Assembly: GCA_039545335.1 (NCBI GenBank)
Contig: BCIN01000008.1
Span: forward strand, 507,528 to 571,527
Direction: 5' to 3'
Length of the DNA: 64,000 nt
From: Kondoa subrosea
Taxonomy: Eukaryota
In this document: one piece after another, positions 8,885 through 64,000 of the stretch
Position numbering within the stretch: the first letter of the stretch is position 1
How the letters are laid out: each line of letters opens with the position of its first letter
Notes under the pieces: model-generated
What the model saw: only the letters and a program-made list of their open reading frames with translations
Told to the model about the DNA's origin: nothing
Databases searched by the model: none
Translations under genes and position numbers: made by a program

Positions 8885-8914
8885 CAAATTGGCACGTAGG
8901 CACATGAAAGCAAA

Positions 8915-9067: not shown

Positions 9068-10462
9068 TCACTTTGCTGCTGCGATTGTCATATCTGAAAG
9101 ACGAGCGAATCGCTTGACATTGTCAGCCTCTTCTAGTACACCTGATGTGACGCAGGAGAAAGTAATGTCACGTTCCGGATCGATCCACACTACGAGACGA
9201 TATGCCTTTGAGTAAAGGATAGAGATAGTGATGAAGAGATGACATACTGAGTGTACTTCCAGCTCCGTAATTACCAAAAGTACGAGGACTGGTCAAAGAA
9301 CCAAAGAATGTTGGATGAGTGCCGGTTCCAGATAGAGCAAAACCAAGACCGAGATTGGCTGGTGGTATTTGCCAATTCTTCATCACAGAAATGCGAGCAT
9401 ACAGATTGTTTGGAGATGTACCGGTTGTTAGAGTAGTCGCCAGATCAATCATGGCTGGTGAAAGAATCCGCTTGCCGTCCAATTCGCCCTTTCTTCGAAG
9501 CATTTCTGCAAAGCGAGAAATATCACGAGCTGTGCTGACGCCTCCGACCCAAGGCATCTCTAAGTAGCAGGATTCAGATCTAAATTGCGCCTATATGCAA
9601 GGAAGGAAACTCACCAGCTCCTTCAATAACAATTTCTTGCATGACTTCCAGATCTCTTCCAGTGAACCATCCTCCAGGCTGAATGAAGAGTAAGTGACGG
9701 AAGAAGTCGATAACGTAAGAGCGGATACTCACTTTGAAGTTTGCCACGATCGGCACCATGCGATCCTTGAACTCTGCAGGAGCACCGATTCGTGTAGATG
9801 TCATGCCCAAAGGCTCGAAGATCTCTCTGTTGACTAATTCTGTGTAAGATTTCGCGCCAGTCGCTCTTCGAACCATTTCTCCCATCAATGCGTGGTTCAA
9901 AGTAGGACTGTAGTCGACCTCTCCGCCTAGAGAAATAGCAAAGAATGAGGTTATGGCGCGAATTATGTTGCGGTTTCAGCGTACCAGGTGTGCCAATTAC
10001 ATCCATCTTACAGATAGCCTTGATGACATTGCTCAAGTTGCCGAGCTCTTCGTAAGGCAGAGGTGTGGGTGTATTTGAGAGACCGGCACGGTGCGAAAGA
10101 AGATGGACAAGACTGATTTGCTCCTTCTTCGCCTGTCTGAAGCGGTCTTCGCCAATGAATTCTGGAATCCAATCAACAACGCGATCCATAAATGACATTT
10201 GACCACGTTCGACAGCTTGAAGCACAAGAGTATGAGTGAAGGCTTTTGTAAGAGAGAAGAGCCAGTAGACATCGTCAGGAGCCGTCTTGCGTTGGCTCTC
10301 CCTGTGAGCATAGCCTAGCGAAACATCCATGGCAACCTTTCCTCCTCTTGATACCACCAAGTTGGCTCCATCGTAAAGACCATCCTTGATATCCTTTTCT
10401 ATAGACGCTTGAAGACGCTTGAGTGCAGCAGCATCAAATCCAGTATGGGTCTCGTCGATCAT
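9068..10462 (-). CDS. Serine hydrolase, beta-lactamase/EstB-like family (copy 1)
   Basis: SxxK motif FSLTK, LLSHRAGL, Tyr motif DYSP, EIFEPLGM, and FGNYGAGSTLMWIDPERD after splicing. Confidence 0.93.
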
Positions 10463-10739
10463 GATAACTATTTCCGCCAAATCAGAAACGAGCCACTTCG
10501 CTGCCAGTGCACGCACCTCGTAATTGGTATGATAGGTTGAGGTAGCGTTAATGTAATAGACTATACTGGCCGTGAGCTCGCAGGACAATGCCAGCTTCTC
10601 CGCCGACCCCTCACATAACGCTTAAGAGTAATCACGGAATGCGACCGAGACGCGTGTAACCCCGCATGTTGCGGCATCGGTAATTATTGTAAACTTGTAC
10701 GAATCCTTTGCAGCCTCACAGAGAAGTTCACAATACTAG
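10463..10739. promoter_or_regulatory. Divergent promoter hydrolase/SDR-A with GTGTAACCCCGC (SYGGRG-type site) at 10654-10665
   Basis: 277-bp head-to-head gap. The motif is the reverse complement of GCGGGGTTACAC at 14339-14350, and its core is conserved in copy 2. Confidence 0.6.
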
Positions 10740-12045
10740 ATGGTTGAACACGATACTTTCGTCAATGGCTTTGCGGATGGGCAAAAGAAGAACACGCCTG
10801 GCGATGAAGCTCAATTGCGTGGGGATGTCTATGATCTCATGTAAATGCGTCGTATTGCAGGTCTCTACAGATCATGTACTAACCTGTTCTCGTTCAGCGA
10901 TCCTTTGCAATTTAAGGGCAAATGGACAAATCGAGTTGTTTGCATTACTGGATCAGCTGGAACCATAGGAACTGCAATCAGCAAGGCGTTTGCAGTAACT
11001 GGAGCCAAGTTGGCGTTATGTGATATGCGAGAAGACGATTTGAAACCAACTGTTGAAGCTTGTCGAAGTAACGGTGCAAGCCAAATCCTGACTTCAAGAT
11101 GCGATCAGACCAAGTTCGAGGACTGCAAGGCGTTCGTGGAAAAGGTTGAATCAGAGCTCGGGCCAATTCACACTTTTGTCAACTGCGCTGGTATCAGTCA
11201 TGCTGCTTTGGTGCGTGATTATGCAGCAGCAATATTTTGTCTGTATTGATGCTTTTGTGCTATAGTTTCGCGATGGGGAAGTGAAAGACTTTGAGCGTAT
11301 TATGGCCATCAACTTCAATGGCCCCATGGTTTGTTCTTCCGCTAGTCTTGATCTTATTCGAGCTGACGTTGAGCATAAAGTATTTCAACTCTTTGATCCA
11401 ACCTCTATTCCACAAACGTAAAGAAGGCTACTCAATCAATCTTGCTTCTCGATCCGGAACCATCGATTATCCTTTTACAGTTGCGTACAACGTCAGCAAA
11501 TGTGCAGTGATCCGTATGGTCGGTTGTATTCAGGAAGAAATCGACAAGAATGAAGGCATGGAGAACAACTTCTGTATCGCGCTGCATCCCGGAGGGGTAG
11601 TTTCAAATATGTCTCAGCAAAAAGGTCAAAAGGAGCCAACGAGTTTATTGAAGGCTCATCCGGAGCAGAGGGACTTTATGAGTCATGCCATTGTATGTCA
11701 GCAAAGATCTTCTCTGACATTGTCTGATTGCGTCTCTTGATAGAAACACTTCAAGACTTCGGCAAATGTATGCGCTTCTACTTGCGTCTTCTTATCCAGC
11801 GGAGCTACCAATGACTTCTTGGTTAGTTGCTTTACACAATATGATGTCGTCAAGCTGATTTTCATGAACAGAGAGGGCGATATCTGGATGTGGAAGAAGA
11901 TCTTGGCGATTTGATGAGACAGAAGGACATCATTCTCAAGAACGATCTTTACAAGCTGACAGTAGACTTCGTTGGAGGTCGTCCGAATGATGGAGGAATG
12001 TATTTGAGGGATCACCAGCCTGCTTTCAAGAGCAAGTTTGCTTGA
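10740..12045 (+). CDS. Short-chain dehydrogenase/reductase SDR-A (copy 1)
   Basis: ITGSAGTIG Rossmann motif, Asp at the end of beta2 (ALCD), VNCAG, catalytic YNVSK and LHPGGV. Ends KSKFA*. Confidence 0.92.
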
Positions 12046-12893
12046 GATGCATTTCGAGATTTGGGTAGGGTTCAAACATTGTATGATCAGCCTCATGAAG
12101 TGAACAGAACGATCCAGTCTGTTGCTACATATTTCCTGAATTTGAGAGTATAACGAGCGCAGCATAAGAGCAGAGATCCAAGACAATTAAAGAAGTCCAT
12201 TTGCAAAGAGAGCTCGCGAATCAGTCACTCAAGACACAGAACAGGCGTAGGTCCTGGAAGAATCACAGAAAATACAACGCGTCTGACAGAGTACTCTTTT
12301 TGCACGGCACGCAGGAGCAGAAGCCCAATTCGACAGCATATTCATTCACGTTGACTTCTAGTTTCGTTCAAGTCAGCAACATTGGGTCATAGCGCGACAG
12401 GGTAGCGTCCATCTTGGCAGGTATCTTGAGCCTGGTATGCTTGCTGAAGCTCGTGGCCAGGAGTAAGCCTGTTTAGAAAATGTGATTGAATCTCATCTGC
12501 ACACAACGCCTCGAGATTGCTGCTTTTATCTCCTCTGCCTGATCTGACCTTCTCTTGGTTGACTATGCTTTGCTCTGAGGCTCTCAACGAGTGAGTGTCA
12601 AGTTGGATTCTTGGAGATTACTACATATATCGCTCGCCTTCAGGGTCAATGAAGGAGCTCGGTACCGATCCAGCAATTAGTCTGTACTTCCTATGTGGTT
12701 ATTCGTGAGATAAGATGCAATCAACGGCCTGCAATCGCATTATGATGTTCTGCGTCGAGCCTTTGTCTCGCATAGATACTGCCGAACACCAGCTGGCGTT
12801 GCTGAATAAGGTTGAGCAGCTTCTCTCAATATCAGGAATTCATACAGAGAAGAGTACATTGTGTCATTTAAATACCGCTATAATGTAGTACAT

Positions 12894-14165
12894 TCAAGTA
12901 CTATCAAAGTTCCATACGTCAGCTGCAACGTCTGGTCTAATCTTTGTGAGGGTAGACATGAATTCTCCCATCCAGATCTTCTGATTAGTATCCATCCAGT
13001 CTTCGATTTCAAAGATCCGATTATCGCCAACGATGCAGCCATTTCCTGTGATAATCCTCATTCAGCGTGTCAGATCCAAAGTATAGACAGCAAGACTCAC
13101 CGTTGTACTTCTTTTCCGTGCTGAATACAGCAGCAGCTCGAGCTAAAGCTATTGGCGGCTGGATCGGTATCCCTTTACAAGCCTGTTCTACTGCTGGCGT
13201 AACAAGACCAGTCCTGTTATAGGTGGTGCGAAGATCAATAATCTTTTCTGAAAGGTGAAGCGGTCACGCACCTGGTCATATATGGACAAATCAAGTTGAT
13301 TCGAGCGTTGAATTCCGCAGCTTTGATATGACTTGCGCGCATTAAGCCCAGGAGCTGCCATGGAGGTGAGCAAGAAGATAAACTATCAGGATAGCGAACT
13401 CACACCATGCTTGGCTGCGCAATAGGTGTATAATCCAGGTGTACCGCGGTAAGAAGCCAACGAGCCTATCATACTAATCTCTCCGCCTTGAGGACTTTGC
13501 TTGCGGAAGTAATGGAATGCAAGTTTGACTGTCTTGATTGTACCGGTGAGATCAATGTCGATCTACAATGGATAAGAAGAGATGACATGAGCTAAGAAGA
13601 GGTTCATGGAAGAGATTCTTGACGTACAATTGCAGACTTTGGCGGAAGTAGTTTTCCGTTCGCGTCAACATCATCCCTACAGTGTAGAATTGAGTAACTC
13701 GATAAGCAGACGATAGTTCGAAGTATTGAGCTCACTTAAAAATGTCATAGGGTTCTCCAATTCCTGCACAAGCGCTATCTCCCCATATCAGCCTGTGACC
13801 AACGAGCTGAGCACAGAAGCAAACCTACACCACAGTATCCACGCGACCGTACTTGCTGACAGCAACTTCGAACATTTCTACTTGCTGATCCCAATTTGTT
13901 ATATCGCATTTGGAGAATGTAATGTTAGGACCTTCTTCGCCGATCGTGTTCTTCAAGTCTCCCCAAACAACCTTTGCACCTCCTCTAGCATAATATTCAA
14001 CGCAAGCTCTGTTCAAACAGAATTCGTTTGGATGCATGAGCCTTTGTCTGGTCACTGTGGTGCATTACCTCACCTGCCGATACCGCTATTACCTCCAGTG
14101 ATGATGACTACCTTGTCTTTAAGCTGAGGAAGCAGTTCTTCGTCCTTGAAGGTGATTTCGGACAT
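12894..14165 (-). CDS. Short-chain dehydrogenase/reductase SDR-B, 15-PGDH-like (copy 1)
   Basis: MSEITFKDEELLPQLKDKVVIITGGNSGIG, KCDITNW and catalytic YCAAK. Ends DVWNFDST*. Confidence 0.9.
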
Positions 14166-14440
14166 TTCGATCTTTTGCTATAATGGTGTCTTGCTATCCT
14201 GCTATTACTGCAATGTTCGGCAATTACAGATGCTTCCTCGAACAGATCCTATTTACCAAGAGATTCATGCATTCCCCACTTATAAGGGTCTTAACCGATT
14301 CTTCACCGAAGCCCCGGAATAACAGTTGCGAAAGATTCGCGGGGTTACACTCTTGTCGAGCTGATCGGTCTGGCCCCTAAATCCTGCTCTTGCTTCTTCC
14401 CTTCAGACGCTCACTCTAATTAGTATTCTACTCTATTACT
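14166..14440. promoter_or_regulatory. Divergent promoter SDR-B/MFS with GCGGGGTTACAC at 14339-14350
   Basis: 275-bp head-to-head gap containing the same 12-mer as the other promoter of this copy. Confidence 0.6.
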
Positions 14441-17400
14441 ATGGGATTCGGAGTGAAAGAAACAGCGTTGGTGTCACCATGTATCGGTATAGCTTGCACT
14501 ACTGACTTATTGTCTGCAGAGATCCTCATGTCCCAGGGACTGCCTTGTAGGGTCTTTGGGCCTGAGATGTGAATGGTTTTCTCATCCATCTTTCCAGGTT
14601 GGACGATCTCCACAAAGCAGAACATGGTGAGATCCTAGCCTGTCCTGCTTGCATGCACGATTTGACTATCTCTGATAGCCGATGTCAAGCATGAACAGCT
14701 CAAGATGGGCACAGGCAGATTTTCCCACATTGTTTGTATGTCATCTATTATCTCAAGTAACGTAGGTTCGCTGATGGTCGACGCAAGTGGTACCACAACC
14801 TACCGATGATCCTAACGAGTACGCTGCTCTTTCCCTCTATAATCCAGTATCATAGCTGAAGACTTGTATAGTCCATTGAACTGGCCAACGTGGAAAAAAG
14901 AAACTATGTTCTGGTGAGTTATGCCTTGTGCAATTGTCTCCTCTCTTTTGACCTAAGCTTCTAGGACCTCTATGTTTGTGGTACGAGCCTTACTTTGCTG
15001 TTTTTTGGTTATTGCTCAAATGTCTTTAGGCTGGTCTGGCTGGAGGTGTGGGAGTGAGTCTGGCATCTAAGTGTCCGTTAAACGTTCTACTGACTTCAAT
15101 CACAGCCTATTCTGGCTTCTGGTTTCTTGCAAGTCTCTCAGGAATGGGGCGTAACCATCGATGGAATCGCTGGTGTATGCCCTTCTGCCATTTTCTTAGT
15201 GTCTTGAGACTGATTATATATTCCACAACAGGCTAATGGATACTGCATTCTCATGATTGGTATTTCAATGGGTTTTGCTGCGGTCTTTGGTCAGAAGTAT
15301 GGTCGTCGTCCAGTCATGCTTATGGCAGTTATTTTTATGATTGCTGGTGGCAGTAAGTGAAGTTTGCAGTTTTCTTTCCCGGTGCTAAATACGCCTTGCA
15401 CAGTCTGGGCTCCGCTTAGTGGTGGTCATCTCAATTCATGGATCGGATCTCGCGTCCTTCAAGGTCTTGGTATCGCTCCTTTTGAAGCTCTCATTACCAA
15501 CCAGGTCAACGACATCTTTTTCGTTCATCAACGTGGCTTCCGTATCACCATATGGTCTTTCGTCATTCAAGCAGGAGTTGTTTGCGCTCCACTAGTGAAT
15601 GGTTACATTATCGAGTCCCCGTCACTAGGGTGGACTTGGTGCTATTGGATAGTCAGTGGGCGAGATTTGCAATGTTTTCGTGCTGATTGCTCTCTATAGA
15701 TGGACATTTTCCTCGTGATTGGGCTCGTTTTGGTCTTGTAAGATCATTTCATGGCAAAGAAAGGCCTGTTTGACTAACAAGCTATCAAACAGCCTCTTCA
15801 TGCCCGAGACAAAGTATCTGGTATGTAAGCATCAGTGAGCCATATTCATTCTGACGGCGCTCTACTCGGCAGCGACCGGAGAAACTTCGCAATGACAATG
15901 GATCTGTCGGCACTGACATTGTTACTGCTGCTGATATGGAACTCAAATCGACTGAAGATCAGAAAGCCACCGGAATGGAAACGGTTGGACATCTTGAAAA
16001 ACGCATCACGTCTGCGTCTTCATATGGCCCAAGAAAGTCTTTCGTTCAAGAGCTCAGACCTTGGTCCGGGTGAGTCAAGGAGAAGTACTGCTGCATAAGG
16101 ATAGTCTGAATGTGTTTATTACAGCTTTGTCAACCCAAAGAGCATTGGATCTATCGCATGGTCCATCGTGTCCGTCCTTGTTAGCCAAGGCCAATTCTTC
16201 AACTGACTCATTAACTCAATATAGTCCCATGTGTCTTTCACCCGTTGTTCTCACCACCTTCTCTATTCTCGCTTTCGGCCAGTGCTGGTCTGTAGTGTTG
16301 TCAACAGTCTCCTGTATGTCATTTCCCTACAGGCTGACAATGGTATTGACATCTTTAGCAGCGGTCATCTTTGCGAAGCCGCCCCTTCTCTTCAACGCTA
16401 CTCAGACAGGACTGATGAATATTGCACCTCTCATCGGTAGGTCTATCGTCTAGTCTGTCGATAAGATATCTGAGCATTCTCTCGACAGGTTTTATCGCCG
16501 CAGTCGCCGTTGCAGGTCCTTTGATTGATTAGTGCGTGATTTCGCCTTACCAATATCTGACTGACAAGATCACCTCATATAGCTTCACGGTGTATGCTGC
16601 TCGCAGAAATTCTGGCGTGTTCGAGCCCGAGTAATTACTCTCGTATGTATAGCTTGCATCAACTCATGTTACTTCTACTCCAGATTCCGGCTTTTGCTGA
16701 TTTTGCCGGGTGGTGTGATTTGCGTGGCTGCTTATGCTGGTCAGTCATATCCTGTGTCTCGTTTGCTCTGTTCTGAGGAAGATCCTCTAGGTTGGGCTGG
16801 ATTTACATCCACGAATTATGTCAGCAAACTTCGTGAGTATAACGTAATCCTGAGCTAACATACTCTGTAGAGCTCTTGGGTTGGGCCAGCATTGTATGTC
16901 TCGCTCATTGTATCTTGGCTCACTCTAACCTCTGGGTTCCAGCTTCTTTGGATTGATCAATTGTCAGTATAAGCACCTTTAGTATTTGCAATACTCTAAC
17001 AAATGATGGCTATAGTCGGATCGGGTCTATTCTTTACCGCCATGTGAGCCTGTAATCTTTGGGCTCGTAGCTTTTTGCTTACCCTAACTTGCAGTGTTGT
17101 CTATATCAATGAGGTATACTTTCTATTCTCTTTGTCAAGCTTCAATAAATTGAACCTGCGTGCGCCTTGATAGGTCCACAGAGATTGCGGTCCCGAAGGT
17201 AAGTAGAGGACTGATACCATCCAAGTTTGAGCTGATTCTGTGTCCAGCCTTTGCCGCCGTCAACCTCTGCAAAGGTGTATTGATCTATGGCTTTGTTCAA
17301 TTCGTCGGTGGATGGGTGTTCAGCAATACGTGGGTGTCGTTCTTCATGCGATTGACCTTTCTCATCCAATTTATTCTACAGTACAACTTACATTATGTCA

Positions 17401-17630
17401 GTACTTTGCGGGGTTCAGCTTGCCACACTTCTATTCGCTATCGTGAGCACTACTCTTTCCGAAAATGATGTATATCATGCTAACAGAATCTATAGCCCAT
17501 GTATAGGTACGTTGATGATCGGACTCTAACCTGACATTATTCTGTGCTCAATGCCGTTACTGTTGACAGATATGGCAAAGTCTGCAGAGCTTGGATGGCA
17601 AAACATCCTCATCTCTTTGCCACTCGCTAA
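14441..17630 (+). CDS. MFS transporter, DHA1/HOL1-like (copy 1)
   Basis: MGFGVKE...DPHVPGT, VPQPTDDPNDPLNWPTWKKE, FGQKYGRRPV, DIFFVHQRG, FMPET and NSGVFEPE motifs. Ends HPHLFATR*. Highly intron-rich. Confidence 0.9.
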
Positions 17631-17906
17631 ACAACGTCAGAAGGGAATTTCTGTCTTGGCTTCAGTGTAATTGATGGATTGTGGTTACTCCTCTGTAATA
17701 GCTAGGCAAATGGACTTGTGTTGAAAATATCAAACATGCGTTGCGTTGTCTCTCAAATTCACCGAAGTCTCTCCGTGTCAGCGCAGGCGACTCAGAGAGG
17801 ACTTAGAAAAGTTGAAGACAACATGAATCATATTAAGGACTGAAAGTAATGAACGTTATGCACATAGAGACCCTTTTTCAATAGCTGTGTTGCAACATAA
17901 TAGCGC

Positions 17907-20786
17907 TCAAGCAGAACCATACTTGGCAGCTTTGGCGTGTCTCTCTTCCGCAAGGCGGTCTGAGGTTTCGTCTTGGTACTATAGCGCTGGACGTAAGCAG
18001 AGACAACTATTGATAAGGGTCTGTGACTGACCAAAGGCTCCAATACGGTATTTCTGCGCATTAGGACCCATCGTTTGAAGAAGTAAGGCTGCAGACGTAA
18101 CTTTAGCATGAACCGGAAGCGACTCAAGGTAGAAAGCTTACGAGAGCATGCTTGAATTGATATTTGACGAAGACTGAGTTGGGAACCGAGAAGACTTGGT
18201 CGAGTTCTTCCAAAGCTGCAAAAATAATGATCAAAAATGGCCCAAATCGATAGCGACTATCCAGCATACTTCTCTGCTTGGTTTCCGGTAACCAGAGGAA
18301 TATCATACACTGGATTTTTGCTCCCTGTCAGCGCCAGCCCGCGACCAGCTAACGAGAATGCACTTACGAAGGCAATTGCATTCAAACCGGCGTAGAAACC
18401 GAATGCACCAGCTGTAGTGAAGGCCAGAACCATTCTAGGGAACGTGAGCGAGAGTACTAGCGACACAATAAATGTGAGACATAATTTCTACACGCCTGAG
18501 ACAAACTTACCTGCTGCCCAGAAGAGGCTACAATGGTGAAAAGTACAGCTATCAGCGAAAAGTATACTCATTGGCTTGAAGACATACCATGTCGCAACAG
18601 CGAAAGCCATTCCCATTTCACGTTGAGCCAGAGGGAAGACTTCGGCGGAGTAGGTGAAAGGTACTGGTCCAAAAATTAGCCGAGGAAACTTGTGAAGCAG
18701 CACCAAGACCAACCTGGACCTTCACCAACAGAGTAAAAGGCAGCGAAGAGGTAGATGAAGAGGGCGATGAGACCAACTCTGACGGTTGAGTCGATAGGTC
18801 GAATCAAGAAGCAAAGACCAGCCGCCAAAAGAGTCCAGCACATCTGAGGGAAGGTGAAGAGAAGGAGAGACCGACGACCGAAAGTATCGATGGTGAAGAA
18901 AGCTGGAATGGCGAACAAGAAGTTGATGGCACCGAAACCAAGAGAAGCGTAAAGAGCTTGGTCGTAGGTGTAGGAAGCTTGCACGAAGACAGATGAAGAG
19001 TAGAAGGCGATAATGTTAATACCTAAGAAATCGATGTGAGGGAAAGAAGGAGAAACAGTACATGGGAACACTTACCACACATTTGTTGGGCAATCATGAC
19101 AACAAAAGAGGCCCTGGTTGCACGACGAACACGAGGGATGGTGAAGAGCTCGGAGAAGCGAGCGAAGAAGGAGTTTCCACGGATGATCTGCTTCTCGGCT
19201 TCAAGTTGAACGTAAATGTAGTACATGTCACGAGCAGCTTGTAAATCGGTGAAACGCAGTCTTCGGAACGATCTGTAAGCATCGGAGTAGCGACCTTTCT
19301 TCATCAGCCATCTAGGTGATTCTGGGCAAACGTAGATAGCCAAAAGGAAGACAGCGGGCAAGAAAGCTGAGCCAAGTTGCAGCCTCCAAGCAATTCTGCC
19401 GACGTCCTTGAGGATGACGTTTGCAGCTGTTCCTCTGCAAGAATACATATTTCAGAAGCGCTTCCTTGTGTAGAAGCTGTTTGTCACTCACAAGAAGATA
19501 CCGAAAGCGGTCCAGAATTGCCAACCTGTTTGTTTCCCCAAATCAGCAATCTCGCTCACAATGGCCCATGCTTGGTGGTTAATTAGACTAACCCATAACG
19601 AGAGCACCTCGAATTTGGGCAGGAGAGTTTTCGGCGGCAAAGATGGGTACTGCGCCTCAATCTTAGCAAAATGGATTGTCGCTCCGAAGTGATACGCATA
19701 CCAGTCGATCCTTTAGCACCCATTCCGAAACCAAGAATCAAACGAACGACGAAAAGTTGCTGCCAGTTTTGAGTGAGACCAGAGCAGATAGGAGTAATGA
19801 TGAGAATAATGGCAGTGATCAAAATGCATCCTCTTCGACCAACGTAGTTGTTGATCTCCAAAAGAGTTAAGCTTGATAGAACAAAGGTCAGAGTAAGTCT
19901 GTACTTACGGGATCAGACAACCAGCATCCGAGGAAAGCTGAGCCAATATAAGGAGCCGACTGCGTCGGGTGATGAGTGCGAGTAATAGAATACCAAGGGA
20001 AGTATTTACGTTTACCAGACCGACCAACCTGCATCGGAATGAGCGCAAGTCACAGAACACAAATGGAGCACTTACCAAGTGTTGCGATCAGCATTGGTCG
20101 GCGAGTCTTCAGGGATACCCTGAATGTACAAAGATTAGCGATCGGAGCTGATGTAGATGAAAGCAACTCACAAATTCCGTAGGGAATGACAAGTTCGCAC
20201 CTATAGTCACGAGTTCAGTAGGCGAAGGACAAAGTCGCTCCGACAAAATTCCGCACCATTTGAACCAGTTTGATCCCAACCTTGAGTAGCGGCACCAATA
20301 GAGCAAAGAGCGATAGTCAAGTAGAGAAGCTTAGGGTGCGACCACTTGTGAGCATTCTCGTAGCGACTGTAAACGATCTTTAGCAAGGCTGCATAAAAAA
20401 ATGTGGTTGCTTTTTAGGACTCACATGATATCTTTGTCTTCTTCGGTCAAATTGTGCTGTGTCTCGAAACCTTTAGGGTTTTGAGCCAAGAAAGCACCCT
20501 TGAGGAACTGTTCTCTCTTGTCCTGAAGACCACGGAGCTCCACGAATCGATCGACGTCGGCTTCTAGCTGTTCTCCAGAAATACCAGCCAAAGGATTGAT
20601 GATACGAGCAGCAATGTTTTGGTTCATCAGACTGTTATAAAAGCGATCTTCAGCTTATCGACCGCCAATCTAGTCAGCATGTGCAACTGACTGAGGATCG
20701 ATATGTTCATTGTGAGTTTTGTGATCGCCCTTTTCGTATTCAGCAGGGTGCGAATCACCAGGTAAGGTGGGCTTGTTGTAGCTCAT
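17907..20786 (-). CDS. Sugar porter family transporter (polyol/myo-inositol-like)
   Basis: [42 protein letters not shown] and PETK sugar-porter motifs. Confidence 0.93.
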
Positions 20787-30215: not shown

Positions 30216-30958
30216 TCATTCATACGGGTTGGTATGAACAGAATGAGTTGGCGCATGATGCATATCGTGAGCCTCTTCGGGATGCGGACGTTTTAGGCCA
30301 TGCTGAGATCGGGAATTGGCTTCATGATGGTGCACTTCTTGTTGAACACGGTAGTGATCCTGAGCGCTGACGATACCATGACCCGGATAGTTGTACACTG
30401 AATTGGGAACTCAGTGAGATAAAGCTTCCCAGATGAAGAGCTATAACGCAAAAAACCTACTCTTGACACCATAATTTCGATATCGATCTTCGTAAGCCAT
30501 TCTTGGAATCGCGTGACCTAGCATCGCTATCTCAACATATTAGCCTTGTACTGAAGAATGAGGCCATTGAGACTCACTGGCATGCTTAGAATGTCTACCT
30601 TCGAACCTATCATCAGAAGATGGTATCTTCGCCCAGAATGGACTAACACTTGATATCTACCACAGAATCGAATCAGAATGCAACGATCAACCTCGCATCG
30701 AGAAGACACCTACCTCCAAATAATCGCCAGAAAAATCAGACCAATCGTAGCTCCGACAGTAGCCAGACCAGCCTGCAGATTTCATAAGCTTGCTGTATAT
30801 GGAACCCATGAAATACTTACTGTAGCTCCAGCTGAGAGAGGTTTGACTCTGTAAGCTCCTCCATAGGGCTGAACGCTGACTAGGTCTCGCCTTCTCTCAA
30901 CGAAGGCCTGAGTTGAGCTTATACAGCAGAGCAGTAGGGTAAGTGGTAGAAAGTACAT
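30216..30958 (-). CDS. Small type-I membrane protein (signal peptide, RR site, TM helix, His-rich tail), paralog 1
   Basis: Six exons including 9-nt (30648-30656) and 17-nt (30578-30594) microexons. The reading frame is confirmed by the paralog at 32505-33256. Confidence 0.75.
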
Positions 30959-32504
30959 AGAGCACTGTATCTCTAAGTCTTTTACGGAATTGATCGTTCA
31001 AGCGGATCGGACGGTTAGGGAAAGTAATGAATCGAGCGCAAGAAGCTGATCCCTTTGTTCTGACGGAATTAACCAATAGTGGAATTTCTCCAAGAAATAG
31101 CAGACCTCAGAGAGCTACTCAAAACAGATTTCGAAGAGCTTTGATGAAATATTTTCGCACGATTGATCTTTCGGAGCATATCGATGAGATCAATTCACAG
31201 ACCGGAACGAGAGACAGACTTGCCATCACGCACCGTTTGCGACTCTTTATGCTAGAATCTTACGTAAGACATATCGGAGTAGTCGAAAGTACGGAAGCAC
31301 GAGCCAAAGTCGTTTCAGAATGAGCGAGTCATGTCCGGCATTCGCGCGACTCATGCTAAGCAACTCCTCTAAGGTTTAGCTATCCCTGCCACCATCTTGC
31401 CTGATACGAGCTAGTTGAGGAAGCAGGTCGAAAACCAGGTCTTGCTAGGTGTATTGCCGAAACAAAGAACCACAGGAGCAACATAATTTCGAGACAAGCA
31501 ATTTGCACAGAAAGGAGAAGTCTAGCATATAGCATACAATCACAAGAGTGCCGGTCACTTCTCTGATCGTGCGGGTACAATCTCCAATATGGGATGAGGG
31601 AGATGATCAGAGACAGCTCGAAGGTGAGGTTGTATCCTCTTGACGAAGTACCGAGTCATTTCATCGCTCGAGTCTGGGTAGCCGTCACCGAAGTTTCTGT
31701 CCATTTCAACCCAGCTCTGGAGATTCTACCTCAGATATGGATTTCTTCTCTGTTCAAAGAAACACTGACAGCTGGTTCCTTTTGCCAGACCTGATCATGG
31801 TATAGGTGTAACTATCTGGATGATATATCTCAGAAGAAGCTCTCCCTTTCCGAGCTATTCGACACACAGCGAGATCATATTCCGCAAAACAGAATCCTGC
31901 GCTTGTCGCGGAACAAACTCTTGCAATAGTGAAAGCATTCTAGCTTCTATGCTAGCTACATTCGGCTGAAATATGAAAGACAATCAGTAATGATTCTCCA
32001 AGTACCTTCCGCGCAAAGATAAACGCTCACATGCGAAATTCCAAAGTGCCCAATATCAACAGACCCACTGTTCTCCTGTATTATTTGTGGGGACCATACA
32101 GGTCCTTGATGCTTATTGCTATGCTGTTCCCGCCATTGAATCCTCACAGGTTTTTGACCTTCGGCGAAAGTTGCATTGGGCAAATATCTGGTGCAATACC
32201 CTTGCTCATCGTGGTGGTCCAAATCAGGTGAGCCACCCAGATATTCACTTTGTAGCCTGGTCTATATCCCGTCTTTCAGCCAATATTCCCACTCATATTG
32301 AACACTGAACATAAACTGACGTTGTAGTTCCACAAAGCCTGATTACGCAAGAATAGAGCTTCATGGGATCTTGCCGCAGACTCCTCGTGCCTAGCAGCAG
32401 CTTTGCCGAGTTGTGATGACAGCATACTACGCGTTACAAACTGCTGTTTTCCTCTGGATCGGTAGATCAGACTCCGGTCGACCGGAAAGCAGACAACAAC
32501 ACTC

Positions 32505-33256
32505 TTACGGGAGAGAATGGACAGGCTGAGCTGATGCGTGATGTGAATCCCGAGCCATATCTGATTGCGGAGGCTTCGGGGCACGCTGGGATCGGAGATC
32601 GGCATGATATCGCGCTTCTTGCTGAATACGGTAGTGATCCTGAGCGCTGACGATGCCATGACCCGGATAGTTGTACACTGTGTTGGGATGACAATTAAAT
32701 AGAGTTTTGGACGGAACTGACAACGCAAAAACTTACTCTTGACACCATAATTTCGATATCTATCTTCGTAAGCCATTCTTGGAATTGCATGACCTAGTCG
32801 AGCTATCTCAACATATCAGCTTTCTACTATGAATGAAGCCATCGGGACTTGCTAGCATGTTTAGAATGCCTACATTCGAATCATTCATCAGAGTTGGAAT
32901 CTCCCCCAGAATTAGACTAACACCTGGTATCTACAAGTGAGACTCATCAGTAAGTCGCAATATACCAGATGCTAATCAAAGCTGGCCTCCAGATAATGGC
33001 GAGGAAAATCAGACCAATGGTAGCTCCAGCGGTTGCTAGACCAGCCTTTCCAGCGATAAGATAAGCTTAGCATTCTGAATACGATCAACTGGCTTACAGT
33101 GGCTCCCGCTGACAAAGGTTTGACTCTGTAGGCTCCTCTATAAGGTTGAACGCTGACTAGGTCTCGCCTCTGCACCTTAGCGGCCTGACTTGAACCTATA
33201 TAGCAGAGCAGCAGAATGCAGATTCGAGAGCACATTGAAGTCGCTGCCATGAACAT
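32505..33256 (-). CDS. Small type-I membrane protein, tandem paralog 2
   Basis: Shares RRDLVSVQPY.GAYRVKPLSAGAT, GATIGLIFLAIIWRYQV and AIPRMAYEDRYRNYGVKMYNYPGHGIVSAQDHYR with paralog 1. The model needs two GC donors. Confidence 0.7.
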
Positions 33257-51977: not shown

Positions 51978-52224
51978 TCTAAGTATTTAGCAAAGCAAGA
52001 GAGCGCAGAGATTCGGGCGGAAAACGAGATCTTTGCTTTGGACAAAAAAATGGAAATCAATTGTGGCAAATCTGAAGTCAAACGACAGCGAAAGAGGGAG
52101 AAGAAGAAAAGTCTATACATAGAGCTGTGCATATCTACAAAGGAGACTAACTACGTAATGAAAGACTTGATACCATGCTGTACAAAATGCACACAAGAAC
52201 GACAAGTAATGCGAATCTCTGCAG

Positions 52225-55950: not shown

Positions 55951-58900
55951 TTAACGGTTCGCAAAGAGTTGAGGATGTTTTGACATCCATAGCCGGACTC
56001 TCTTGCCGTAGATGTACATAGGCTGATCAGTTCGGGTCAGTTTCATGTAACTCCGCAGTCAACAAGACTCACAATGGCAAAGAGAAGTGTAGCTAGCTGC
56101 ACACCGCAAAGTACAGACATGATGTATGTTGTGCTGGTCGGAGCATAGAGTCAGTAAGAACTGATGCCGTGCTGAAGGAGAGGAAGATATACGTATTACT
56201 TTGTACCCATCCGCCCACAAATTGGACAAAGCCATAAATGAGAACACCTTTCGAAAGATTGACAGCGGCGAAAGCTATGATCGGTCACATGTAAGCCAAG
56301 TCACAATAATTGATGAATCGTGAGAGTTTACCTTCAGGTCCACAATCTCGGTGCACCTATGCATATACACAATGAGCAACATGTCAGATTGGCAACTTGC
56401 GAAAATCCATACCTCATTGATATATACAACGCTGGAAGTAAGCTTCAGCAAGTAACTCTCTTCATAGAGGAGGAAAGACCAACATCGCGCTGCAGAAGAG
56501 ACCAGATCCGACTATTTGTAGAGTGATTGTGACCGTGAGAATAGCGAAGTGCAAGAGGTCTGCACTCACAATTGATAATTGATAGCATGAATACAGGTCC
56601 GACCCAAGTGGTCTATGGATTTGCGTCAGCTATTGTCCAACAGATATTGGTATTTCAATAGGTTGCTTACATAATTTGTGGCCGTGAGACCAGCCCATCC
56701 TAATATCTATTGCTTGAGCGCAGAGTAAAGCTTATCTCAAGAACGCAGAACTGACCAGCATAGGCAGCCACAGTAGCAAAGCCTCCTGGAAGGATCATCA
56801 ATAATCGGAACCTGTGAAGGAACAAGGTTCTATAAGACGGAGCGACCACAGCAACAAACACTGACTCAGGCTCAAAAGTCCCCTTATTTCTACGCGACGC
56901 AAACAAGGTGACGTAGTCGATAAGAGGTCCAGCAACAGCGACCGAGATTATCAGACCTGGCCAGCAAGCGATAAGTCGCTAGCTACAAGGTCTTGATCGG
57001 CAACGTACCGATGAGAGGCCCGATATTGGTCAATCCAGTCTGCGTGGCGTTGAATCCGAGTGGAGGTTTAGCAAAAATGACAGCTACAAGGCATGTTAGC
57101 CTTCGACCATTGGAACATCAAAACCTTACAAGCGACTGTTCCAAGGACGACAGTCCAGCATTGGCCTGCAATTGAAATTAGCGAGCAGAATCTGCAATTG
57201 TAGAAGAGACTCCTTACCAAATGCGAGAATAGAGAAAGTGGTCAGTACAACTGGTGATAAGCACATAGGACTGGTGTACAGACATAGTCAGTGTAGTATG
57301 TTAAAGACTGATACCTGACGGACACGATGCTCCATGCGATGTTTGTAATGCTTCTCGGATTGACATAGCTATGTAATAGGGCATTAGTCTTTCTTTCGAC
57401 ATAAGCTGACGCTCTGACTGACCCAGACCACGGTTTGAGGTCCTGCAGGAAACTCTTCCTTGGGCCGTATTCTATGGCTGTCGGGGTACGCTTCTCAAGG
57501 TGTCCAACCATTTCTATGCTCTCCTCTTTGTGTTCTCTGCTGGACTTGAGATCGCCTTCATGCGATAAAGGTTCCGTCGCAAGAGCGCCGTTATCAATTT
57601 GATATCGTTCAGCTCGCTGCAAGAAATCCTTGTGAAATCGTCTTTGGCCAATCTAGCTGATTGCTCACAACATATTTTGTTTCAGGCATGCAGAAGACTG
57701 CTCTACGATTTGAGCGAAGGGAGGATGATCCCATATAACGGTGACGTACAAACCAAGATCAGTCCAACACCGAGAGCTATGTCCATCTAAGATCGACCGG
57801 TTGATCAGAGGCTGTAGGCTGCAGGTAGATTGGCAGGAGCAGACATACAAACCAGTAACAGTATTCCCAACCAAGCGAAGGTTTCGATATGATGTACCCA
57901 TTCACAAGCGGCGCAGCAACAACTCCTCCGTGGACAGCGAAATTCTGTCAGTACTCATGTATGAGCCCAGGCAAAACGGCAAATAAATACAGGCCTCACC
58001 CATACAGTGATCCTAAAACCACGCTGATGGACAAAGAATATGTCTGAAAGGGCAGAATTAGTGAATGAATCTCATAGGCAATCAATGTACACACCATTAA
58101 TCTGATTAGTGACGAGAGCTTCGAAGCTGAGGTCCGTATGAGCTTCGACAGAGTATCATACACGACTAAGACATACGGTGCGATGCCTAGAATGTGGAGA
58201 GATAAGTTATAGCCTAAATCAGAACTAGGTGATTCACCTAATCCTTGAATAACGCGAGATCCGATCCACGAGTTGACGTTTTCAGCACACAAAGGTGCCC
58301 AAATGCCACCGGCAATCATCAGAATCACGCCAGCTAGCATGACTGGACGTCGACCATATTTCTGACCGAAGATTGCGGACAGACCCATTGATACGCCGAT
58401 CCTGAATACGAGACGCAGTATGGGTAAGAGGAGATTGCCAAAGATAAATAGAGATACATGAGAATGCAATAACCGTTACCACCTAGCCAAAGTTAGACGG
58501 AGACTATCAATCACTGAGCAATGCATACCAGCGATATCATTGATGGTGACACCCCATTCTCTAGAAATCTGAAGAAACCCAGAGGAAAGAATCGGCTGAT
58601 TATACCAGGATCAGCAGAGCGCCTGCTATATCGACGCAGCTGGCTCACTCCCACTCCGCCTGCCAGTCCACACTGACAAGAGTTTCAGTAGATGCTGTTA
58701 TATGTAGACTAATGTGCCACATACAACATACATAGAGACCCAGAACAGAAGTTCTTTCTTCCAAGTGGGCCAATTCAATGGACTGAGGCATCACAATGTT
58801 AAAACTAGTCCTGTTTCAACGGAAGGACAAGCTAACTCGTTGGGGTCATCGCTTGGTTGAGGAACCTTTGGTCATGCATAGCATCAGCAATGACAGGTCT

Positions 58901-59206
58901 TTCCTTGAGGATTACACTGACCAGAACAACATGCGAAAATTTCCCTTGCCCCATTTTGAGTTGCTCGTGATTGATATCACCTTATATTCAGAATTAGAGG
59001 GATTTCATGAGGAAGGAGGGAACTAACGATGTTCATTCTTGTGTAGATCATCCAAACTACAAGCAATCAGGCCGTGTCCTGTGCCACACGAGCAGGACAG
59101 CGTACAGAGAAGTCCCTGGGACATGAGGATCCCTAGAGCCCAGTTTAGCTCAACCAATTCTCAAAGTGAAATACACTGACTTGGTTTCTTTGACACCGAA
59201 GCCCAT
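55951..59206 (-). CDS. MFS transporter, DHA1/HOL1-like (copy 2)
   Basis: MGFGVKET, DPHVPGT, PLNWPTWKKE, FGQKYGRRPV and NKGTFEPE. Ends KHPQLFANR*. Confidence 0.9.
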
Positions 59207-59556
59207 TCTTGCGCTAGCTGAATCAAAGTAACAATGAGTAGGTTTGTCGGAAGAGAATCAGAGCCAAGCATGTCCCGCGCATCTCCACCACAATCCCCGG
59301 GAAGAGCTTTATCAGAGGGGTGCCGCCCGCAGGAAGCATGCCGAGAGATGCCGCGGAATGACCCTCCCAAGAAGTGAATGCATCAAAAAGAGCATTCAAT
59401 GCGGACAAGAAGGCAAGGCGGAAAGTATGAGCATTTTGAAACGGAGACTACCAGCCGGATTGAATTATGAAGAGACCTCTTCGAGTCCTTGAGAAGGCAG
59501 TCGCGAAACGTAACAATGCGACAAATGCACGCGCATGGCGCTTCCAGCAGAATTGA

Positions 59557-59566
59557 TATATAAAAG
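59557..59566 (+). promoter_or_regulatory. TATA box upstream of SDR-B copy 2
   Basis: TATATAAAAG about 50 nt upstream of the ATG at 59616. Confidence 0.5.
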
Positions 59567-59615
59567 CCCAGCTTTGCTCTTATCTAGCTTGCTTTCTCAC
59601 AAACTCGCAATAAAG

Positions 59616-60793
59616 ATGTCTGAAATCAAGTTTAACGATGAAGCACTCCTGCCTCAGCTGAAGGAAAAGGTAGTCGTCATCACTGGTGGTAACAGCGGTA
59701 TTGGAAGGTGAGATGATTCATTGTAGCGTAGATTGACAAAGACTAATGCGAAACAGAGCTTGCGTGGAATATTATGCTTCGGGAGGTGCACAGGTCGTTT
59801 GGGGAGACTTGAAGAACACGATCGGCGAAGAAGGTCCCAACATCACCTATGCGAAGTGCGATATCACAAGTTGGGCAGATCAAGTAGCAATGTTCAAGCT
59901 TGCTGTAAAAAAATATGGACGGGTAGGCTCTGTGATGTGAGAACTTCCTCATATATGATAGTCGTAGCTGATGAGATAGACAGCGCTTGTGCAGGAATTG
60001 GCGAGGCCTATGATATTTTCAAGTCAGTTTAAACATACTTACTTTTTGCACTCCACTCACGTCACGTTTGAAAGAGATGAACTTGACGCGAATGGAGAAC
60101 TTCTTCCACCGAACGATACAATCATTCACATCGATCTTTTGGGAACGATAAAGACAGTCAAACTAGCTCTTCATCATTTCCGCCAGCAAAGCCCTCAAGG
60201 TGGAGAAATCAGCATGGTGGGATCAGTAGCTTCATATCGAGGCTCTCCAGGACTTTACAGCTACAGCGCAGCGAAACACGGCGTGAGCTTTCATTAATGA
60301 TCTTCTTCATGTCTCTGCTCACATCACATAATAGCTCCTGGGCTTATTACGAGCGACATACACCAACGCTGCAGCATTCAATGCCAGAATCAATTTGATC
60401 TGTCCGTACATTACTCGGTATGTCCGGTCTTCGAATGGCTTTGAAGCTGCTAACTTTGACATCGAAACAAAGATCCGGTATGGTGACGCCAGCAGTAGAA
60501 CAAGCTTGCAAAGGTATCCCAATCCAATCACCAATCGCCTGCGCCCGAGCTGCTGCTGTTTTCACCACCGAGCAAAAGTATAATGGTGATTGTCTCAAAC
60601 CATTGGCTTTCGGTTTGCAAACTGAAGTTGACTTGCAGGGAACGGATGCGTTGTTGGAGATAACCGAATCTTTGAGATGGAAGAATGGTTGAACAGAAAT
60701 GACAAGGAATGGCTGGGAGAGTTTACATCTTCGCTAATCAAGATGACACCACAGGTTCAAGATGAATTCTGGAGTTTGGATAGTACAAAGTAG
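59616..60793 (+). CDS. SDR-B (copy 2)
   Basis: MSEIKFNDEALLPQLKEKVVVITGGNSGIG and YSAAKHG. Ends FWSLDSTK*. Confidence 0.9.
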
Positions 60794-61563
60794 CCGAACA
60801 GTATTGAGACAGAATACAATCCATCCCTTTTCAACGTGTTGTTCGTTGTGTTCTCTCGACTACGCTCTCCTTCGTCGTTACCTATGTAAGACAGTTGCGG
60901 ACACTTCAGACTTCGAACGCAGCACAGAGACTTGCGTGCATGTAAGCATGAGACCGAGCTGTTCGAACGACCTTGCGACCAGACAATCTCCCGCAATCCG
61001 ACTTGACATTCATCCATTGAGAGCCACGCAGTAAAGCACAGTCAGCCAAGATAAGATCTGAGAAAAGCAGAGGAGATGAAAGCAGCAATCTCGAGGCGTT
61101 GTGTGCAGATGAGATTCGACCACATTTTCTAAACAGGCTTACTCCTGGCCACGAGCTTCAGCAGCATACCAGATCAAAGATACCTGCCAAGATGGAAGGG
61201 AACTTGTCTCACCAGGATCCAAATGCTGCTACACTTGAGCGAAACTAGAAATCAACGTGAATGCATATGCTGTCGAATCGTACCTCTGCTCATCCGTGCT
61301 GTGCAAAAATACTACCCAATCAGACGCGTTGTATTTTCTGTGATTCTTCCAGGACCTACGCCTGTTCTGTGTCCTGGGTGACTGATTCGCGAGCTCTCTT
61401 TGATAATGGACTTCTTCAATTGTCTTGGATCTCTGCTCTTATGCTGCGCTCGTTATACTCTCAGATTCAGGACATATGTAGCAACAGACTGGATGCATTC
61501 TGTTCACTTGATGAGGCCGATCATACAATGTTATCACCCTATCCAAATCCCGAAAGAAACCTC

Positions 61564-62866
61564 TCAAGCAAACTTGCTCTTGAAAGCAGGCTGGTGATCC
61601 CTCAGATACATTCCTCCATCGTTCGGACGACCTCCAACGAAGTCTACTGTCAGCTTGTATAGATCATTCTTGAGAATGATGTCCTTCTGTCTCATCAAAT
61701 CGCCAAGATCTTCTTCCACATCCAGATATCGCCCCCTCTGTTCATGACAATCAGCTTGACGATAATATATTACGCAAAGCAACTGACCAAGAAATCATTG
61801 GTAGCACCGCTCGCGAGATATACGCAAGTGAAAGCGCATACATCCGCTGTAGTTTTAAAGTGGTCCTGCAATGGATAGAATTCGTCAACAGGCATGCATG
61901 TAGCGATATCTTTCGACTCACCTTAGCATGACTTGCGAATTTCCTTTGTTCTGGATGAGCTTCGAACAGTCTGGTTGGCTCTTTTCGTCCTGTCGCTTGC
62001 GACATATTGGATATAACGCCTCCAGGATGCAGTGCGATACAGAAGTTGTTCTCCATGCCTTCGTTTTTATCAATCTCTTCTTGAATGCAACCGACCATGC
62101 GGATTACTGCACATTTGCTAACATTGTATGCGACCGAGAAAGGATAGTCGATTGTTCCGGATCGAGAAGCAAGATTGATCGAGTAGCCTTCTTTGCGCTT
62201 GTGGAAGAGCGGTTGAATCAATGAGTTGAAGTACTGTAAGCTGCCGAATCAGGTCTGACAATTCAACACCGCTGATTGGACGCACCATAGGACCATTGAA
62301 GTTGATCGCCATTATACGCTCAAAACCCTCTATGTCACCATCCCGGAACTGACGGATGCAGACTTAATAATGGGCGAGAGAAATGCGTCGAAACTTACCA
62401 GACCTCTGCCACTGATTCCTGCGCAACATACGAAGGTGTGAATTGGTCCTAGCTCAGCTTCAACCTTATCCACAAAGGCTTTGCAATCTTCGAACTTGGT
62501 TTGATCGCAACTGGAAGTCAGAACTTGACCAGAACCATTACTTCGACAAGCTTCCGCAGTTGGCTTCAAATCATCTTCTCGCATATCGCAAATAGCTAGC
62601 TTGGCTCCAGTGACTGCAAATGCTCTGCTGATTGCTCCTCCAATGGTTCCTGCTGCACCAGTTACGCAAATAACTCGATTCTTCCATTGACCCCTGAATT
62701 GCATTGGATCTCTGTGAAGACCATCTCAGTTTGCGAATCATCCAGATGATATTGTCCCAATTTACATCAGATCATAGGCCTCTCCGCGCAATTGAGCTTC
62801 CTCTCCAGGCGTGTTCTTCTTCTGTCCATTTGCAAAGCCATTTACGAAAACATCGTGTTCGACCAT
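61564..62866 (-). CDS. SDR-A (copy 2)
   Basis: VTGAAGTIG, YNVSK and LHPGGV. Ends KSKFA*. Confidence 0.92.
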
Positions 62867-63174
62867 CTTGTGCGTTATTCAGACTGATTATCGAGCGTCA
62901 AGCAACATCCAAAGGAGCTCAAGTTCAATGCAACTTGAATGAAATGCGGGGTAAATTGTTACGCCGGTGCCGCGCTTTCTCCGGGTTTTTGCAATTCAGC
63001 ATAAGGCTTAACTGAGGGGAGCGGTATTCGGCAGCAGCTTGCTTATGGCTTTGCTTTGATTCTATTCAGTCAACACTATTCTCTATTGCATCAGCAAAAT
63101 CAGATATCGCGAGTTCTGCTTTTGTTGATAACTTGATGCCTCTGAGCTTGCCCTGATCGCTCGTATAGGCTGAA
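62867..63174. promoter_or_regulatory. Divergent promoter SDR-A/hydrolase copy 2 with ATGCGGGGT at 62944-62952
   Basis: The motif has the same relative orientation and a similar distance from the SDR-A ATG as in copy 1, while its flanks are diverged. Confidence 0.55.
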
Positions 63175-64000
63175 ATGATTGACGAAACCCACACTGGATT
63201 TGACACTGCTGCGCTGAAGCGTCTGCAAGCTTCTATTGAAAACGATGTCAAGAATGGTCTTTACGATGGAGCTAATCTGGTAGTATCGAGGGGAGGAAAG
63301 GTTGCAATGGACGTGTCAATTGGCTTCGCAAATCGAGAGACCAAGCGTTCAAGTGCTCCAGAGGACGTCTACTGGCTCTTCTCTCTTACTAAAGCTTTCA
63401 CTCATACACTTGTGCTACAAGCGTAAGTCAACTTGGTAGTCAGACCGCTCCCTCTGCTGATGCGCTGCTCCGCTTCTTTAGTGTCGAGCGCGGTCAAATG
63501 TCATTCACGGACCGAGTTGTCGACTGGATACCAGAATTCATTGGCGAAGACCGCTTTAGACAGGCGAAGAAGGAGCAAATCAATCTTGTGCATCTCCTTT
63601 CTCACCGCGCCGGTCTTGTAAATACACCTACTCCTTTGCCTTACGAAGAGCTCGGCAACCTGAGCAATGTCATCAAGGCTATCTGCCAGATGGATGTAGT
63701 CGGAACTCCTGGTATGCATGAGCTCAGCATACTCTAGATCATACTAATGGTCTCGGTCTCGGAAATCTCTAGGCGGAGAAGTCGAATACTCGCCAACGTG
63801 GTGAGTTTACCTTACATTTTCTGCGCAATATAGTTCTGAATCATGTAAAGTAATCACGCTTTGATGGGAGAAATGGTAAGAAGAGCGACTGGCGCCAAAT
63901 CTTTCACAGAGCTAGTCAACAGAGAGATCTTCGAGCCTTTGGGCATGACATCTACACGGATGGGTGCTCCTGCCGAGTTCAAAGATCGCATGGTCCCAAT
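63175..64000 (+). CDS. Serine hydrolase, beta-lactamase family (copy 2; truncated by window end)
   Basis: MIDETHTGFDTAALKRLQ, FSLTK, LLSHRAGL and EIFEPLGM. Introns at 63423-63481, 63712-63772 and 63801-63850. Confidence 0.92.

Follow-up and report, generated by a model that had tools for sequence, protein, structure and literature searches.

Patchy divergence between the arms of an inverted four-gene cluster duplication in Kondoa subrosea

Inverted duplications of single-copy DNA flanking a unique segment (1–60 kb) have been described for the 2h and 2q inversions of Drosophila mojavensis (PMC3355041) and for the Atlantic herring (PMC11499932), and a similar arrangement is found in the fungus Kondoa subrosea. 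Here, a cluster of four genes, specifying a serine hydrolase, two short-chain dehydrogenases/reductases (SDR-A and SDR-B) and a major facilitator superfamily (MFS) transporter, is present twice in opposite orientation within and just beyond a 64000 nt stretch of contig BCIN01000008.1 (G000:C8:507528-571527; termed the window herein), which derives from a 1.12-Mb contig of an 18.9-Mb genome in 27 contigs. In the Drosophila and herring cases inversion is demonstrated comparatively, and one of the copies is frequently incomplete or decaying, whereas all four Kondoa genes are intact in both arms, and an inversion is here no more than a possibility.

The genes themselves also have described counterparts. 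An actinobacterial alpha-amylase was transferred to the Agaricomycotina and thereafter underwent massive intron gain (PMC3584928). The two cases are alike in presenting an actinobacterial-type enzyme in a fungus, an intronless origin, later introns, duplicates with differing introns and cases of intron sliding. They differ in enzyme family, in intron number (2–6 here, 8–22 there), and in that the present gene resides in a wholly duplicated cluster; moreover, two introns align between paralogues here, whilst the amylase introns are described as unalignable even between close species (PMC3584928). Three intron transfers between paralogues were tabulated in 2012 (PMC3443670), and one hydrolase intron of this locus (intron 349) resembles those cases in being common to apparently recombining paralogues and far more similar than its neighbours, with the difference that it may predate the duplication and merely be homogenised. 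Finally, fungal PF00144 serine lactamase/esterase genes have been proposed to act in xenobiotic breakdown, and the Fusarium FDB1 and FDB2 clusters are titled horizontally transferred in the reference list of the same paper (PMC5610705); what these share with the present locus is a beta-lactamase-fold hydrolase proposed for such breakdown. Inverted duplication, conversion between paralogues, the clustering of catabolic genes and the gain of introns after actinobacterial transfer each have precedent, and their combination appears to be new; neither locus nor combination was found described in the literature searched, which largely excludes subscription papers.

The inverted duplication and its age

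Self-comparison of the window by BLASTN returns 14 collinear minus-strand matches, pairing 9749–17631 with 64000–55950 at 68–88 % identity. With the next stretch of the genome (L011) added, 9072–10214 also matches 64674–63482, giving mirrored arms of 9068–17631 and 55950–64678, the final 678 nt of the right arm lying outside the window. An inverted duplication of the whole cluster, first proposed in an initial annotation made from the sequence alone, is borne out by this comparison, as are the gene order and strands given there for both arms (Pfam PF00144, PF00106 and PF07690). A genome-wide DNA search revealed no third copy of the cluster.

Models for the hydrolase were obtained by spliced alignment to a 389 aa relative, P0001, and those for SDR-A ab initio; SDR-B and MFS were modelled by cross-guided alignment, with the ends of SDR-B set by hand. 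As no internal gap interrupts the alignment of the hydrolase model with P0001 or of the SDR-A model with P0003, both relatives being intronless, the splice sites of these models are supported. All eight models are open throughout with no internal stops, in agreement with the annotation, and its count of 17 nucleotide differences with a single amino acid change in 40 codons of SDR-A is reproduced for windows starting at codons 155, 156, 159, 160 and others. Ratios of non-synonymous to synonymous distance (dN/dS) of 0.067–0.102 over the gene pairs likewise uphold purifying selection on both copies. Protein identity between the arms is 90 % for the hydrolase, 86 % for SDR-A, 75 % for SDR-B and 76 % for MFS. 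Synonymous distances (dS) of the four pairs, by the Nei–Gojobori method (NG86), are 0.97, 0.99, 1.39 and 1.78, values above 1 being rough. At a dS of approximately 1–1.8 the duplication is indeed old, as had been suggested; a uniform age of the arms does not hold, given the tracts described below.

Intron content has also drifted apart, 14 of 53 modelled positions across the four pairs being confined to a single arm (6 to the left, 8 to the right). The earlier observation that most introns do not align is correct for 37 of the 39 shared introns (z ≤2.9) and fails for two (z 9.6 and 10.9): SDR-A intron 289 (34/41 positions) and hydrolase intron 349 (41/49).

Were the arms two haplotypes or the product of a misjoin, they would constitute an assembly artefact. 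Sequence assembled from two public DNA sequencing runs (X1 and X2; one sample, possibly the source of the assembly itself) covers all 30 bins of 8000–19000, and no single contig of either run spans the left arm. Listed contig breaks, however, coincide with short stretches that the arms have in common, none above 68 nt, which is the length of the longest identical run between them. One contig (36 kb) runs from the end of the left hydrolase into the RAD9 side, and continuity between the left MFS and the inner block is given by another. Contig depth is similar for arm-unique and flanking contigs (135–146 in X1, 52–59 in X2), a weak sign in that depth is not copy number. A dS of 1–1.8 together with 14 differing introns is far beyond allelic divergence, and with identical runs this short an artefactual origin of the arms was rejected as scarcely conceivable. 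Repeat-induced point mutation (RIP)-like change was also considered as a source of differences and set aside: transitions are highest at all CpG contexts (ACG, TCG and CCG), and the dinucleotide indices of the arms equal those of the inner block.

A probably homogenised tract at the 3′ end of SDR-A

Divergence is not evenly spread along the arms. In the last SDR-A exon, synonymous differences affect 5 of 36 sites, compared with 118 of 188 in the rest of the gene (Fisher p=6e-8), corresponding to a dS of 0.15 against 1.37 elsewhere (within-gene permutation p=0.0002). This low divergence continues beyond the gene, where only 72 of 573 non-coding positions differ (Jukes–Cantor distance 0.138, z=57), and begins before the exon, with the alignable intron 289 opening the tract. 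The remaining spacer and both promoters barely align between the arms (z 2.4, 3.8 and 1.0). With distances of 0.14–0.15 as opposed to approximately 1.4, the tract is some 10-fold younger than its surroundings.

Comparison with the outgroup protein P0003 reveals the same boundary. The last exon harbours nine sites at which left and right agree with each other and not with the outgroup, and none at which one copy sides with it; the corresponding counts before the last exon are 21 and 39 (contrast p=2.5e-4; protein level, one outgroup). These site patterns are clustered along SDR-A (runs test p=0.0001, again at the protein level). Since 9 of the 57 last-exon residues differ in P0003, the exon is free to vary, yet the arms are identical there. 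Weaker signs of comparable events occur elsewhere: third positions of the hydrolase form a mosaic against the outgroup L093 (86 runs over 214 sites, p=0.0017), suggestive of older tracts, and SDR-B contains a patch of low divergence at 13931–13997 (p=0.003, best of three window sizes). Patchy divergence of this kind points to ectopic gene conversion between the arms, and past pairing of the arms would thereby be indicated.

Selection might produce a similar pattern if the 573 nt were a functional element (an antisense RNA, a long 3′ untranslated region signal or a hidden micro-exon gene) that also constrained the last exon, with no conversion involved. Blocks of approximately 93–96 % identity do alternate with blocks of approximately 78 % in the tract, and its right copy carries an antisense open frame of 133 codons (61261–61659). 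On the left, however, that frame contains two stops and a frameshift, and no frame is open in both arms; nor did Rfam give any match over the window at the gathering threshold, or either strand of 12046–12620 fold better than shuffled sequences (z +1.97 and +3.24). A search of the ESM Atlas with the 133-codon frame returned no usable match, which is uninformative either way. Constraint of this kind is also at odds with the variability of the last exon in P0003, with homogenisation of the intron upstream of it, and with a non-coding distance equal to the exon dS. A functional element in place of conversion is accordingly regarded as improbable.

Conversion is not without its difficulties, and several observations weigh against it. 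A within-gene scan found no significant tract in the hydrolase alone (p 0.11–0.22) or in MFS (p 0.49–0.97), and the mosaic seen at the protein level upstream of codon 290 in SDR-A (p=0.005) is hardly backed by synonymous sites (0.32 vs 0.37–0.47). Differences inside the tract are uneven, at 1–11 per 50 nt, which fits constraint or several conversions. The outgroups are few records of uncertain orthology. The SDR-B and MFS models are provisional, being derived by cross-guided alignment, with four MFS introns hand-set.

With regard to why both copies persist, dosage or substrate divergence had been proposed; for SDR-A at least, the data favour divergence over dosage alone. Relative to P0003, the right copy has 32 private residues and the left only 7 (p=7e-5), and 16 of the 57 residues at 233–289, presumably the region where SDRs bind substrate, differ between the arms; set against this, the same 32 and 7 would arise had the arms duplicated before the outgroup diverged. 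At residue 129 (11124–11126 vs the 62435–62433 region), the Asn of the NxAG motif in the left copy and outgroup corresponds to Cys in the right copy.

These differences bear on a further possibility, that one arm was copied from a related fungus, by introgression or fungus-to-fungus transfer, and landed near the resident cluster. High dS, the 14 discordant introns, and the fact that outside the tract P0003 resembles left SDR-A more than right SDR-A does would all be expected of such an event. Asymmetric rates, or a duplication preceding the outgroup split, nevertheless explain the same pattern; G+C content at third codon positions (GC3) is alike in both arms (0.43–0.48), and landing 38 kb away on this contig of this genome is unlikely by chance. 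Import of one arm is thus considered very unlikely. Duplication within the genome followed by conversion remains the preferred reading, and the features concerned are collected in Table 1.

Table 1. Features of the two arms and the segment between them (window coordinates)
Feature	Position	Strand	Description
Left serine hydrolase	9068–10462	-	PF00144, family VIII esterase-like; 389 aa; 4 introns, codons 159, 224, 245, 349
Hydrolase intron 349	9190–9247	-	Sole hydrolase intron aligning between arms (core positions compared); absent from P0154
Left divergent promoter, hydrolase/SDR-A	10463–10739		277 nt; SYGGGG box at 10660; CGG/CCG triplets
Left SDR-A	10740–12045	+	346 aa, 5 introns; aligns without gaps to P0003; TGxxGxIG at 51, YxxxK at 195
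Left homogenised tract	11822–12619		Last SDR-A intron, last exon, 573 nt downstream non-coding
Left SDR-B	12894–14165	-	~288 aa, 7 introns, one left-only (codon 120); C-terminal end least certain
Left divergent promoter, SDR-B/MFS	14166–14440		275 nt; three SYGGGG boxes
Left MFS transporter	14441–17630	+	PF07690, 555 aa, 29 modelled introns (5 left-only)
Single-copy inner block	17631–55950		Sugar transporter, UTP6, RPB7, kinase, ATP synthase f, septin, RRN7, TOM20, LON-RING (Pfam)
Right MFS transporter	55951–59206	-	554 aa, 30 modelled introns (6 right-only)
Right divergent promoter, MFS/SDR-B	59207–59615		One SYGGGG box at 59295
Right SDR-B	59616–60793	+	289 aa, 6 introns
Right homogenised tract	60985–61787		Counterpart of left tract
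Right SDR-A	61564–62866	-	346 aa, 5 introns at same sites as left; most private substitutions
Right divergent promoter, SDR-A/hydrolase	62867–63174		SYGGGG box at 62946
Right serine hydrolase	63175–64000, on to window-equivalent 64678 (G000:C8:572205) in L011	+	389 aa, 6 introns

The hydrolase, its bacterial affinity and its introns

Judged by its sequence, the hydrolase is a serine beta-lactamase-like PF00144 enzyme of the family VIII esterase type. PF00144 scores 168.5 bits on P0001, an 89 %-identical relative, against a cut-off of 27; both copies possess the SxxK motif (SLTK) at residue 70 and the catalytic Tyr at 165, and the nearest solved structures are family VIII carboxylesterases (best E 2e-20). 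Two narrower assignments were rejected, as P0001 reaches only 41.8 bits against the curated NCBIfam bla_class_C cut-off of 415, and 109 bits against that of 750 for the lipase LipE. The FDB1 cluster uses a metallo-lactamase, unlike the actinobacterial-type serine enzyme found here, which lies nearest to family VIII carboxylesterases. No additional hydrolase copy was present among 10 matches in the genome.

Both copies are 61–62 % identical, over 381 aa, to proteins of five Streptomyces loci. A scan of bacterial genomes retained 79 loci, 53 of them from Actinomycetota, and identity of at least 45 % to the Streptomyces protein was seen in 53/53 of these and in 1/26 of the others. Trees (LG+G4) were built for 23 and 37 rows chosen by the author from 151 extracted proteins. 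In the smaller, the fungal genes and Actinomycetota form one clade (100/100) separate from other phyla, and in the larger the fungal clade is nested inside Actinomycetota, with unstarred support of 90/91. The genes also bear host features, namely spliceosomal introns, a GC3 of 0.43–0.46 like that of their neighbours and the contig join to the RAD9 side. An actinobacterial acquisition is likely on these grounds. The direction, from bacterium to fungus, is suggested by a wide, operonic and intronless distribution in 13 named actinobacterial genera, as against a handful of intron-bearing records. Less favourable to this view is that a clade of Actinomycetota with the fungal genes as sister is not rejected (approximately unbiased test, p-AU 0.478; an open fork of the 23-row tree), that both trees are without any eukaryotic PF00144 protein, and that left copy, right copy and P0001 form a three-way fork in the 23-row tree.

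The bacterial genes lie in operons of the order TetR-SDR-serine hydrolase-P450-reductase (L014-L066), with an SDR directly upstream in 51/53 loci, a cytochrome P450 (≥45 % identity) in 51/53 and a reductase nearby in 50/53; no function for this operon was found in the literature searched. Rieske oxygenases occur in 5/53 of the loci, and some actinobacteria have two diverged hydrolase copies, close together and in opposite orientation (L035, 116–1255; L052 and L061, on the same contig). The Kondoa cluster shares with these operons the hydrolase subfamily and an SDR as immediate neighbour, and differs in containing neither P450 nor reductase. As fungal SDR-A and SDR-B are only 25–31 % identical to the operon SDRs, and searches of the fungal genome with the bacterial SDR and P450 turned up nothing close (best E 1e-9 and 6.5e-9), the hydrolase alone seems to have been transferred, and its pairing with an SDR appears rebuilt from fungal parts. 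All four SDR copies display classical motifs (TGxxxGxG for cofactor, YxxxK); PF00106 gives 131 bits on P0003 and also matches SDR-B exons. In the ESM Atlas P0003 retrieves SDR clusters, eukaryotic first and bacterial at equal score, which is a lead only. A homologue search from one SDR-B exon yielded 0/39 candidates, leaving SDR-B and MFS without an outgroup.

An intronless bacterial origin would allow the hydrolase introns to be ordered. The right copy holds the four introns of the left plus two of its own, at codons 82 and 168. Two records 72–80 % identical to both copies, P0016 and P0154, are gene calls that read into introns, and hence genomic; they probably represent one gene. In them codons 159 and 245 carry introns, whereas codons 82, 168, 224 and 349 do not; for 168 this is taken from the frame-shifted tail of P0016, where the offset of W-x-K-W equals that seen when the left sequence is shifted. 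A closer relative (P0155/P0076, 88–89 %) also has introns 159 and 245 and is without 168 and 224. The simplest order would be stepwise gain, from 0 in bacteria to 2 in the distant relative, 4 in the left copy and 6 in the right. For the discordant introns of SDR-B and MFS, gain and loss are indistinguishable. Three MFS introns are offset by 1–2 nt (14736–14787/58921–58866, 15175–15231/58528–58483 and 15738–15792/57749–57698), possibly through sliding or model error. Intron 349, alike in both arms and absent from P0154, is a candidate for intron transfer by conversion, although P0154 split off before the duplication. With short and therefore weak queries, intron 349 matches only its twin and intron 82 only itself, giving no sign of an introner-like source. 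Horizontal transfer of an actinobacterial beta-lactamase into Pucciniomycotina was not encountered in the literature searched.

Genomic setting, regulation and meaning of the locus

The approximately 38 kb between the arms is mostly housekeeping in content, as first annotated, with UTP6, RPB7, TOM20 and others confirmed by Pfam. Directly after the left MFS lies a sugar-porter gene (PF00083; 17800–20000, minus strand), which has no right twin and may belong to the cluster. A tandem direct pair of small intron-containing genes (30216–30958 and 32245–33256, minus strand, 75 % DNA identity) is also present; ab initio models of these begin with a hydrophobic N-terminus, contain a further hydrophobic segment and end in a His-rich tail, with no Pfam match on the exons tried. 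On the right flank, L011 7061–8181 and 8838–9780, which we take to be MAK16-like and guanylate-kinase-like genes, are useful as synteny markers.

How the arms came to be inverted is a question of origin, and its answers are compatible with the best explanation offered below. The duplication may have been born with an inversion, through staggered breaks or template switching, in which case the arms would mark ancient breakpoints and the block between them would be reversed with respect to its ancestral state, or a later crossover within a converted tract may have flipped the block. Inverted duplicates of single-copy genes at both ends of a segment are the pattern of staggered-break inversion (PMC3355041); the same pattern is seen at herring inversion breakpoints, where inverted duplicates are also noted as a substrate for ectopic recombination (PMC11499932), and the tracts of the present locus speak of past pairing. 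Conversely, BLASTN gives no persuasive sign beyond the arms that any flanking gene was partly duplicated, TBLASTX outside them recovers only the tandem pair at 30.2–33.2 kb plus short weak matches, identical runs are short, and inverted duplicative transposition yields the same picture. An inversion, at the origin of the arms or later, is accordingly a real possibility, falling somewhat short of an even chance. Given 68–88 % identity and no identical run above 68 nt, present-day flip-flop of the inner block is unlikely.

Each arm comprises two head-to-head gene pairs on short promoters of 275–409 nt. The four promoters, 1269 of 64000 nt, hold 6 of the 21 SYGGGG sites of the window (Poisson p=5e-6), and CGG/CCG triplets at twice the average density, which we take to be CreA/Mig1 and Zn2Cys6 sites, respectively. 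A SYGGGG box also occurs in the 5′ region of the relative L093, and from these boxes we infer that the cluster may be subject to glucose repression. Tempering this, SYGGGG was chosen after seeing the sequence and the background is the whole window rather than promoters; GCGGGG alone is not enriched over the window (8 vs 7.9 expected). Both left promoters share a 12-mer seen nowhere else in the genome, which is modest evidence, as random promoter-sized pairs share one in 61 of approximately 5000 draws.

Catalytic motifs are intact in every copy. The order P450-SDR-hydrolase in the bacteria suggests, by analogy, that the cluster could import a carbon source or a compound of plant or microbial origin, carry out oxidation of an alcohol or lactol and then hydrolyse the ester or lactone so formed. 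We lean slightly towards this chemistry, with lactam detoxification or other ester chemistry as alternatives.

Taken together, the locus is best explained, with good though incomplete confidence, by assembly, old inverted duplication, divergence and patchy conversion. A co-regulated cluster of four genes with a catabolic or detoxifying role would have come together in a fungal lineage, combining a serine hydrolase of actinobacterial type with an MFS transporter and SDRs of fungal type; the genes would be paired head to head, each pair on one short promoter. A single old duplication would then have placed an inverted copy 38 kb away. Both copies would have remained under purifying selection, gaining or losing introns separately and diverging in part in substrate-contacting regions, whilst the arms, pairing in a loop, would repeatedly have had short tracts copied from one to the other by ectopic recombination. 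The youngest clear tract, of approximately 800 nt and about one-tenth the age of the duplication, would be that covering the 3′ end of SDR-A. A bolder extension, which we think doubtful, is that conversion also carried new introns (349, perhaps 224) between the copies, and that a crossover in a tract flipped the 38-kb block in some strains.

If only the old duplication held, this would be an ordinary retained paralogue pair. A gene that was originally intronless, however, makes intron gains unambiguous, and here they can be ordered (0, 2, 4, 6). Recombining paralogues 38 kb apart would likewise make intron transfer, which is rarely documented, testable with few sister genomes. A further interest of the cluster is that it leads to an SDR-hydrolase-P450 pathway of actinobacteria, apparently uncharacterised, of which the fungus seems to have rebuilt the SDR-hydrolase pairing from its own SDRs. 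Should intron transfer and block inversion both prove true, then transfer, cluster rebuilding, intron gain, intron transfer and inversion would stand in one datable series. The locus may in this way be read as a compact record of the domestication of borrowed genes.

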